From the IMG/VR virus record IMGVR_UViG_2574180220_000002: a stretch of DNA of 9,322 nt. One strand, written 5' to 3'. Each line of letters opens with the position of its first letter. The first letter of the stretch is position 1. This stretch comes from a virus. Lineage: Duplodnaviria; Heunggongvirae; Uroviricota; Caudoviricetes. Below the pieces are notes generated by a model. The model did no database searches and was not told the origin of the DNA. It saw only the letters and a program-made list of their open reading frames with translations. Below are positions 5,955-7,065 of this stretch, piece after piece. The translations under genes and the position numbers were made by a program.

Positions 5955-6443
5955 ATGGTTTCCCACTGGTTTGGTGCCAGTCAGTGGCAGTTGCCGAATG
6001 AGGCTGACTATCGGAAGTTACAGGCACTGTTTTCCCGTATAGCGGCAGAGAAGTTTCAGGAACAACAACTGGAACAACCACACCACCAGCTGGTGGCATC
6101 TTATGATTCACTGAATCGTAAATATTCTGAATTGCTGGATGAGTTTAAATCTCTCCGGCGCTATTTCTCCGTATCAGTCTCCGTGCCTTATACCGATGTC
6201 TGGATGCATAAACCCGTTCAGTTCTACCCGGGGAAACATCCGTGTGAGAAACCGGCGGATATGCTCAGGCAAATAATCAATGCCAGTAGTCGACCTGGTG
6301 ATCTGGTTGCTGATTTTTTTATGGGATCCGGTTCCACAATAAAAGCAGCAATGGCGCTGGGGCGTCGGGCCTTAGGTGTTGAGCTTGAGTCAGAGCGGTT
6401 TAACCAGACAGTGAAAGAGATAAACGAGCTGGTGGGGAAATAA
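5955..6443 (+). CDS. Chimeric or truncated ORF: HTH remnant plus C-terminal module of a beta-class N6/N4 DNA methyltransferase lacking the catalytic DPPY region (likely non-functional remnant; resembles yfdM-type MTase fragments)
   Basis: The C-terminus carries [12 protein letters not shown] (HPTxKP-like) and DFFMGSGST (FxGxG AdoMet motif I) followed by [10 protein letters not shown], which is the C-terminal half of ParB-less beta-class MTases. No DPPY is present anywhere in the ORF. The same frame is open from 5856 and encodes the second half of an XRE HTH ([39 protein letters not shown]) with no start codon before ATG 5955. AGGT lies 9 nt upstream of 5955. Confidence 0.55.
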
Positions 6444-6446
6444 TCT

Positions 6447-6475
6447 GGTGGCCACGTCAGGTGGCCTTTTTATTT
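6447..6475 (+). terminator. Rho-independent terminator closing the rightward (cro) transcription unit
   Basis: GGCCAC (6450-6455) / GTGGCC (6461-6466) stem with 5-nt loop GTCAG, followed by TTTTTATTT (6467-6475). Begins 4 nt after the TAA stop at 6441-6443. Confidence 0.7.
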
Positions 6476-7065
6476 CCATTACACAGCACCCGCATCTGCG
6501 AGGTGGGGTTATGAAATCCATGGATAAGTTAACAACGGGTGAGCGGCTGGTCAGTACGGCCAGGACGACGGAAACCACATACCGCTTCACGCAACTGGCG
6601 CTGGGGAACTACAGGCTGACTGTCCGGGCAGTAAATGCCCGGGGGCAGCAGGGGGAGCCGGCGTCGGTATCGTTCCGGATTGCCGCACCGGCAGCGCCGT
6701 CACAGATTGAGCTGACGCCGGGCTATTTTCAGATAACTGCCACGCCGCATCTTGCGGTTTATGACCCGACGGTGCAGTTTGAGTTCTGGTTCTCGGAAAA
6801 GCGGATTGCGGATATCAGGCAGGTTGAAACAAGCGCGCGTTATCTTGGTACGGCGCTGTACTGGATAGCCGCCAGTATCAATATTAAGCCGGGCCATGAT
6901 TATTATTTTTACGTTCGCAGTGTGAACACAGTCGGCAAATCGACATTCGTGGAGGCCGTCGGTCGGGCGAGCGATGATGCCGAAGGTTACCTGGATTTTT
7001 TCAAAGGCCTGATATTGCATCCGCCGTGGCGCTTGAGGATGCGAGCACGACGAAAAAGGGGATAG
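6448..7065 (+). pseudogene. J: Internal fragment of the lambda J-type tail tip / host specificity protein (central fibronectin-III-like region)
   Basis: The translation ([33 protein letters not shown]...[41 protein letters not shown]...[17 protein letters not shown]...[12 protein letters not shown]) is nearly identical, as far as I recall it, to the middle of lambda J. The nominal GTG start sits inside the upstream terminator with no SD. Homology ends at about 7008, after which the frame reads unrelated sequence to a stop at 7065. Roughly 175 of about 1130 aa remain. Confidence 0.8.

Follow-up and report, generated by a model that had tools for sequence, protein, structure and literature searches.

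The stretch of DNA analysed here (9,322 bp, referred to as the window) raises the question of how a short internal piece of the tail gene J came to lie, at about positions 6443-7011, between a cro-like gene and the 3′ part of stf. The initial annotation, made from the letters alone, read the piece as an internal J fragment left between two precise deletion junctions, and this was borne out by DNA and protein homology and by junctions resolved to the base. We found that positions 3491-12812 of JNPM01000023.1 (assembly GCA_000703685.1; locus L007) match the window at 100% identity, and protein records with identical sequences belong to E. coli 2-005-03_S1_C2 and C3. The left part of L007 carries, in order, icd, an AAA ATPase gene, a D12-class DNA adenine methylase gene (window 1-861) and the integrase gene, followed by an excisionase gene, yfdR/yfdQ/yfdP-type early genes, a cI-like repressor gene, a cro-like gene and the flagged region; the right part carries stf, tfa, three more cargo genes and a duplicated icd 3′ end. 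Icd is thus found upstream of the element, with the ATPase and methylase cargo genes between it and the integrase, and the duplication that bounds the element is found at L007 18029-18243, which repeats 1379-1593 at 89% identity. An insertion site in the icd 3′ end, together with an icd fragment duplicated at the opposite end, marks the element as e14-like. The cI-like repressor gene (4902..5594, (−) strand) is intact, with Pfam HTH_3 and Peptidase_S24 domains (an HTH and an S24 peptidase), and is annotated in relatives as an XRE family regulator.

Prophages at icd match the early region (window 1-5881) at 97.7-99.9%, among them two intact relatives, EC190486 (97.7% over 1-5881) and the ~48-kb GPEC206-621 (99.9% over 1-4766). 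Set against the ~48 kb of GPEC206-621, the ~16.4 kb present here reflects a loss of morphogenetic genes. Intact same-site relatives are ordered cro, ymfL, replication genes, Q, methylase, holin, lysis, terminase, head, tail, J, lom, stf, tfa and cargo, and every piece retained in our element has the order and orientation that it has in EC190486 and GPEC206-621. On the reading of the flagged region as a deletion scar, which taken as a whole we judge very likely to be right, the window would be part of a ~16.4-kb defective lambdoid prophage at the e14 attachment site in icd, in the E. coli 2-005-03_S1 lineage.

Cargo genes lie at both ends of the element. Between icd and the integrase (window 1-861 and L007 1712-3421) are an AAA_15/AAA_21 ATPase and the D12 adenine methylase, and since the methylase matches PADLOC PD-Lambda-5_B (E = 1.9e-121), this left-end cargo is probably a PD-lambda-5-like anti-phage system. 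Downstream of the window, L007 13314-17309 encodes a 662-aa UvrD-like helicase (PADLOC ‘Helicase’, 1.8e-32), a 212-aa ORF that overlaps the helicase gene and is without a hit, and an AbiTii protein (4.3e-31). By its gene content, this appears to be a second defence-type cluster, at the position where e14 has mcrA.

The J piece spans 6539..7014 on the (+) strand and corresponds to lambda J residues 664-822/823, as identified by DNA and protein homology, Pfam domains and a PDB match. Its DNA is up to 95.6% identical to intact gpJ genes in phage records and complete E. coli genomes, and its translation matches residues 664-823 of lambda J in PDB 8iyk/9e7m (E about 1e-97; 1.2e-97 for 8iyk). Pfam (PF24489 at 1.5e-41 and PF24421 at 4.4e-18) recognizes the second half of Ig_J and the whole of Ig_J_second, so that the piece comprises the second half of the first Ig-like domain and a complete second one. 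A complete J protein of ~1132 aa has its hub at the N-terminus and its receptor-binding region at the C-terminus, whereas only nt 1991-2466 of the 3399-nt gene are found here. Against its nearest intact alleles, 15-16 codons differ synonymously and 4-5 non-synonymously; because the changes are mostly synonymous, they fit allelic divergence among functional J genes before the deletion, not long decay after it, as judged from the codons. The extent of the piece differed from what had been proposed: it holds 159 codons instead of ~175, its homology runs to 7014 (...FFKGLI) and not to ~7008, and it begins at 6539-6541, 63 bp beyond the T-run of the nearby terminator instead of ~30 bp past it, the gap being filled by a holin leader and 10 holin codons.

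We found that J is joined not to the cro operon or its terminator, as the initial annotation had supposed, but to codon 10 of a holin gene, 3′ of a retained 664-bp late-region block (5878-6541) that is 100% identical in phage Ayreon and in hundreds of E. coli prophages. In this block, 5882..6443 on the (+) strand is the 3′ fragment (codons ~164-350) of a late-region N6/N4 DNA methylase gene, 100% identical to that for the 350-aa methylase of Ayreon and matching only profile positions 132-220 of Pfam N6_N4_Mtase. It is followed by an intrinsic terminator (6447..6476, (+) strand), recognized in a terminator scan as a stem at 6450-6466 and a T-run, which in intact phages sits in the methylase-holin gap. 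Because 5878-6541 consists of the methylase 3′ part, a terminator annotated at the equivalent Ayreon position and the holin start, this terminator belongs to the late-region methylase, which it follows on its way to the holin, and its attribution to the cro operon was refuted. The remaining 6477-6541, 100% identical to Ayreon and many prophages, is the holin 5′ UTR, SD and first 10 codons. The essD-type holin start itself (6500..6541, (+) strand) has an SD, GAGGTGG, at 6500-6506 and dual ATG codons at 6511 and 6520, and is 100% identical to the Ayreon holin and E. coli essD through 6541.

At junction B (6539..6541), holin sequence continues to 6541 and J sequence begins at 6539, so that the two share a 3-bp microhomology, GTG, and holin codon 10 is in frame with J nt 1991 (aa 664). 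The loss at this joint, estimated from GPEC206-621, is ~20 kb and includes the lysis, head and tail-shaft genes and the 5′ part of J. The product is a chimeric 184-aa ORF (6511..7065, (+) strand) of 10 holin residues, 159 J residues and a short out-of-frame tail from stf DNA, with the J-frame stop at 7063-7065. It is called as a gene in the E. coli 2-005-03_S1 assemblies and publicly annotated as ‘phage-related host specificity protein J’. Since the holin SD and both starts are retained and the holin-J fusion is in frame, the contention that the J sequence has neither promoter nor SD was wrong in its second half; its first half held, in that the (+) strand yielded no sigma-70-like promoter from 5400 to 7300.

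The deletion on the cro side proved to be a separate, third junction that had been missed. At junction A (5878..5881, (+) strand), cro homology stops at 5881 and methylase homology starts at 5878, with TATC shared, joining cro codon 63 to methylase nt ~490; we mapped it by three-way alignment with the cro gene of locus L010 and the methylase genes of L004 and L010. Native cro encodes 86 aa in L010. Here, 5692..5916 on the (+) strand is a chimeric ORF with an HTH_3 domain, made up of 63 native cro codons and 11 out-of-frame codons from methylase DNA. With L010 17861 to 25850 as the ruler, the loss at junction A is ~8 kb and comprises ymfL, the replication genes, Q and the 5′ half of the methylase gene.

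On the other side of the J piece, alignment with J and stf of Salmonella phage SPF_0923 (L006) placed junction C at 7011..7014 on the (+) strand. J continues to 7014 (nt 2466) and stf begins at 7011 with the first base of codon 451 (nt 1351), the two sharing GATA and stf being in the −1 frame. That stf follows J in a different frame was therefore correctly seen, but instead of a spacing of three bases there is a 4-bp overlap. The distance from J nt 2466 to stf nt 1351 in SPF_0923 gives a loss of ~3.0 kb, covering the 3′ part of J, lom and the 5′ part of stf. The stf remnant (7011..8687, (+) strand) holds codons 451-1008 of the 1008 found in SPF_0923. From 7011 its DNA is 99.5% identical to intact stf genes, and 7011-9316, stf and tfa together, is 97.2% identical to SPF_0923 (97-98% for stf). 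Pfam finds Stf-type domains (Phage_fiber_2 repeats and Collar; PF03406, PF07484), and Tfa matches PF02413. The homology starts at codon 451, with no match to an N-terminal domain; the remnant lacks the N-terminal tail-attachment domain and native start of a functional Stf. The tfa gene (8687..9322, (+) strand) encodes a 211-aa tail fibre assembly chaperone (Pfam Caudo_TAP), which we compared with the Tfa proteins of L006 and L008. Its homology to relatives stops at ~9253, ~20 codons before the stop, and a unique C-terminal tail brings its length to 211 aa, compared with 191-194 aa for relatives, so that the mosaic boundary towards the right-hand cargo appears to fall within the 3′ end of tfa. 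The stf C-terminus and tfa had been described as the only intact structural module. They are indeed the last structural genes, but stf, lacking codons 1-450, is not intact.

Alignment of the breakpoints, including any microhomology, had been suggested at the outset, and in three-way alignments of the window with both parental sequences all three joints were mapped to the base as TATC (A), GTG (B) and GATA (C). The chance of at least 3 shared bp at a random joint is ~0.05, and ~1e-4 for all three. No IS element, IS-like ORF, inverted repeat or recombinase site was seen at any of the three joints. Each joins collinear pieces across an overlap within the 2-10 bp typical of microhomology deletions. 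The most economical account is serial microhomology-mediated deletion in one collinear icd-site prophage, with the J piece left behind, and we consider this highly probable. The ancestor would have been a ~48-kb prophage of the order int-xis-yfdRQP-cI-cro-replication-Q-methylase-holin-lysis-head-tail-J-lom-stf-tfa-cargo, from which three separate illegitimate deletions between sites sharing 3-4 bp would have removed ~31 kb in total. A first deletion of ~8 kb would have run from cro codon 63 to mid-methylase, a second of ~20 kb from holin codon 10 to J codon 664, and a third of ~3 kb from J codon 822 to stf codon 451, the J piece being the survivor between the second and the third. We infer that the pathway was RecA-independent short-homology joining or replication slippage, and all pieces would derive from a single ancestor. 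Intermediates with only one or two of the junctions were found neither in complete E. coli genomes nor in exact-match scans.

Two observations sit less easily with this account. The best identity of the J piece, 95.6%, is below the 99.5-100% of its neighbours, which counts against a single ancestor and means that different phages may have contributed the pieces. In addition, the J-side breakpoint of junction C recurs in unrelated remnants, which a purely random microhomology model does not predict. Both bear on the alternative that the J piece was brought in by recombination between two lambdoid phages, through homology-facilitated illegitimate recombination or as filler DNA in break repair. 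Such an origin would account for J being less conserved than the methylase-holin block (100%) and stf (99.5%), and it accords with the high mosaicism of lambdoid prophages, with the exchange of stf tip and tfa in a variant of this element (L008, below), and with the recurrent J breakpoint being the point at which a very common J allele class diverges. However, the order holin, J, stf and the orientation are exactly those of an intact genome, and the overlaps at the junctions are only 3-4 bp. Moreover, SPF_0923 alone has both a J at 95.6% and an stf at 97-98%, so unequal identities need not mean two donors. We therefore consider an origin by recombination unlikely and keep to serial deletion in one prophage.

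The recurrence of the J breakpoint deserves separate treatment. We found that J nt 2466 (...TTTTTTCAAAGGC[CT/AA]GATA, with the break directly after GATA) is the base-exact left breakpoint of four independent deletions that have different right partners and microhomologies of 2-7 bp. In the window (7011-7014) the partner is stf codon 451, with GATA shared; in E. coli Survcare253 (L003, 7320-7325) it is the 3′ end of J; in L018 (8820-8827) and L041 (rc; 12632-12639) it is stf codon ~838, equivalent to window 8172-8178, with a 7-bp microhomology, CCTGATA; and in L044 (5562-5563) it is nt 1962 of a second stf type. The L003 case was met unsought, while L018, L041 and L044 were found with a search pattern aimed at J nt 2466. 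The same type of pattern at five control positions in J gave seven hits, all of them point variants and none a junction, and the mirrored pattern, in which the right-hand side of J is kept at the same base, gave 0 hits. As J contains 21 GATA tetramers, microhomology alone fails to explain the shared breakpoint. From J nt 2466 onwards, a very common J allele class (GAGATAGGG...) departs strongly from the class seen in the window, and because the breakpoint lies at this allele homology boundary, an origin in stalled recombination is conceivable.

Other causes of the recurrence were considered and rejected. DNA folds of the site, on both strands and for two alleles, were no more stable than those of shuffled sequences (z +0.5 to +1.0), which speaks against a hairpin, and J and its four partner sites showed no imperfect homology extending past the 2-7 bp. 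A Din-family (Pin/Gin/Hin) site, an imperfect palindrome of 26 bp in which crossover takes place at the central dinucleotide, was compared by eye with 6990-7020: the half-site spacing did not fit this consensus, the J homology extends beyond where the core would lie, and the crossover would not fall after GATA. Resemblance to a lambda att core was likewise rejected by eye, given wrong spacing and a crossover that would not follow GATA. A similar motif occurs elsewhere in J: in E. coli 02A16CRGN003 (L002, 7711-7712) and Survcare253 (L003, 7044-7045), at the equivalent of window 6734, an HTH gene of the replication region is fused to J at nt ~2186 within GATAAC, after GA, with a 2-bp microhomology, TA. 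This GATAAC resembles the recurrent site, and a targeted search there gave point variants only. We tentatively raise, as possible but doubtful, the idea that illegitimate recombination in lambdoid prophages has a one-sided hot spot at J nt 2466, on the border between the conserved hub/Ig portion of J and its exchangeable fibre portion. If so, the same site-specific fragility or stalled recombination could drive both prophage decay and natural swaps of receptor-binding modules in J, and confirmation across the population would point to a boundary between modules of a host-range gene at which recombination is concentrated in a sequence- or structure-specific way.

A canonical −1 slippery heptamer, T_TTT_TTC, lies in the J frame at 6996-7002, 8 nt upstream of junction C and beginning 15 nt before its GATA, and the −1 frame is open from there into stf. 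This brings up the scenario in which J-like and Stf-like sequence together make up one natural gene, contiguous or fused, possibly expressed as a J-Stf protein by −1 frameshifting at U_UUU_UUC. The −1 frame of stf relative to J, without a −1-frame stop between heptamer and junction, would suit such a gene, as would the rarity of such heptamers, the J frame containing just three X_XXY_YYZ sites, and the fact that all four junction types at this J position put the downstream gene in the −1 frame. This last coincidence is not significant, because GATA/TA has a codon-frame bias, 72% of the GATA occurrences in these genes being read as ‘GAT A’. Against the scenario, junctions B and C occur in none of 50,697 phage records and none of 5,426 complete E. 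coli genomes, every carrier is a remnant with further deletions, J here lacks its first 663 codons, and no stimulatory structure was predicted. With J and stf in different frames and a J stop ending at 7065, a natural contiguous J-stf gene, the finding that could have overturned the initial annotation, was excluded as a candidate; we give the whole scenario next to no credence, and the heptamer is probably there by coincidence.

Serial deletion was further supported by comparison with other carriers, which had also been suggested at the outset and which traced junctions B and C to a single clonal series of isolates and a single metagenome contig. Nine contigs carry the exact chimeric ORF: eight of the 50-200-kb class, the named ones among them representing one isolate series, and an ENA metagenome contig (L008). 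Exact-match scans for junction C in species-representative genomes and for junction B in JGI metagenome contigs returned nothing. A 553-aa stf ORF variant (P0021) appeared at first to be a second junction-C lineage; because its loci (L013-L016), at a Rac/Qin-type site, have native stf upstream of the position equivalent to 7011, they are unrelated to junction C. L008 has zero differences from the window between 5878 and ~8200 (2.3 kb), junctions B and C included, whereas L008 2320-3561 differs from window 8200-9322 at ~300 positions in the stf tip and tfa. This pattern implies that stf-tfa was swapped by homologous recombination after, or independently of, the deletions, and it suggests that remnants like this one still exchange receptor-binding modules and can serve as a reservoir of tail-fibre alleles. 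It also leads us to regard misassembly as effectively ruled out: that the junctions are assembly artefacts, chimeric contigs across repeated prophage sequence, is scarcely credible even though prophage repeats often cause misassembly and the isolate contigs all come from one sample series, as overlaps of 3-4 bp cannot make k-mer joins, an independent metagenome assembly has both junctions with a different stf tip, and a 132-kb contig has normal chromosomal flanks.

What the retained pieces might still do can be judged from their domains and signals. The J piece would have no tail-protein function, because no more than one and a half of the internal Ig-like domains are present. The first deletion took away both Q and the Q-to-methylase interval, the site of the late promoter in intact relatives. 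Transcription from upstream could come only from the repressor-controlled cro promoter, and it would run into the terminator at 6450-6476. The stf remnant has a GTG at 7026 without an obvious SD, and no native start. From the truncated domains, the loss of Q and the late promoter, the terminator and the lack of a recognizable promoter, we infer that 6443-7011 is a silent, unexpressed scar. The truncated stf and tfa would likewise be a remnant, yet one that still appears to recombine with other stf-tfa alleles.

Judged from sequence, then, the region would be an ordinary three-deletion scar in an e14-site prophage remnant, an instance of known decay mapped to the base. It offers a well-resolved case of large deletions at 3-4-bp microhomologies reducing a lambdoid prophage to integrase, repressor, defence cargo and tail-fibre remnants, and it corrects an annotation, the ‘host specificity protein J’ ORF being a holin-J-stf chimera. 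The scar itself matters little, and the recurrent breakpoint at J nt 2466 is its only point of wider interest. According to a review (PMC6379469), prophage degeneration by deletion is well documented, and e14, which measures 15.2 kb and is located at icd, is the textbook case at this site.

Among known systems, lambda J (PDB 8iyk, 9e7m) aligns along the whole J fragment at residues 664-823 with few substitutions, but only 159 of its 1132 residues are present and both the hub domains and the C-terminal receptor-binding fibre are absent. The architecture recurs in a Qin-type remnant in E. coli KL53 (L145), which also has a short internal J fragment between two deletion junctions, followed by truncated stf and tfa, in the order terminase, J nt 2318-2639, stf 3′ part, tfaQ and pinQ. 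There, a 322-bp J fragment (L145 3912-4233), which RefSeq includes in a ‘terminase gpA endonuclease subunit’, lies between a truncated terminase large-subunit gene and the stf 3′ part. The KL53 remnant differs from our element in chromosomal site, in having the terminase large subunit as left partner and in its J breakpoints. E. coli 02A16CRGN003 (L002) and Survcare253 (L003) share the early region at 97.5% over window 2290-5881 and have an early gene fused to internal J, and another deletion in L003 has its left breakpoint at exactly the base seen in junction C. They differ in integration site and integrase and in that J starts at nt ~2186 instead of 1991, and L002 has kept the J 3′ end, lom and a full-length stf. 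The e14 element of E. coli K-12 likewise occupies icd, with the 3′ end of that gene duplicated, and an integrase and excisionase of the intE/xisE type are found in relatives. Both elements are ~15-16 kb long and have an immunity region, stf/tfa remnants and defence-type cargo at their ends. Unlike e14, our element has yfdR/yfdQ/yfdP early genes, another repressor and the methylase-holin-J scar, and is without the Pin invertase or an invertible segment. In place of the lit and mcrA of e14, its left-hand cargo is a PD-Lambda-5_B-like methylase with an AAA ATPase, and its right-hand cargo includes a UvrD-like helicase and AbiTii.
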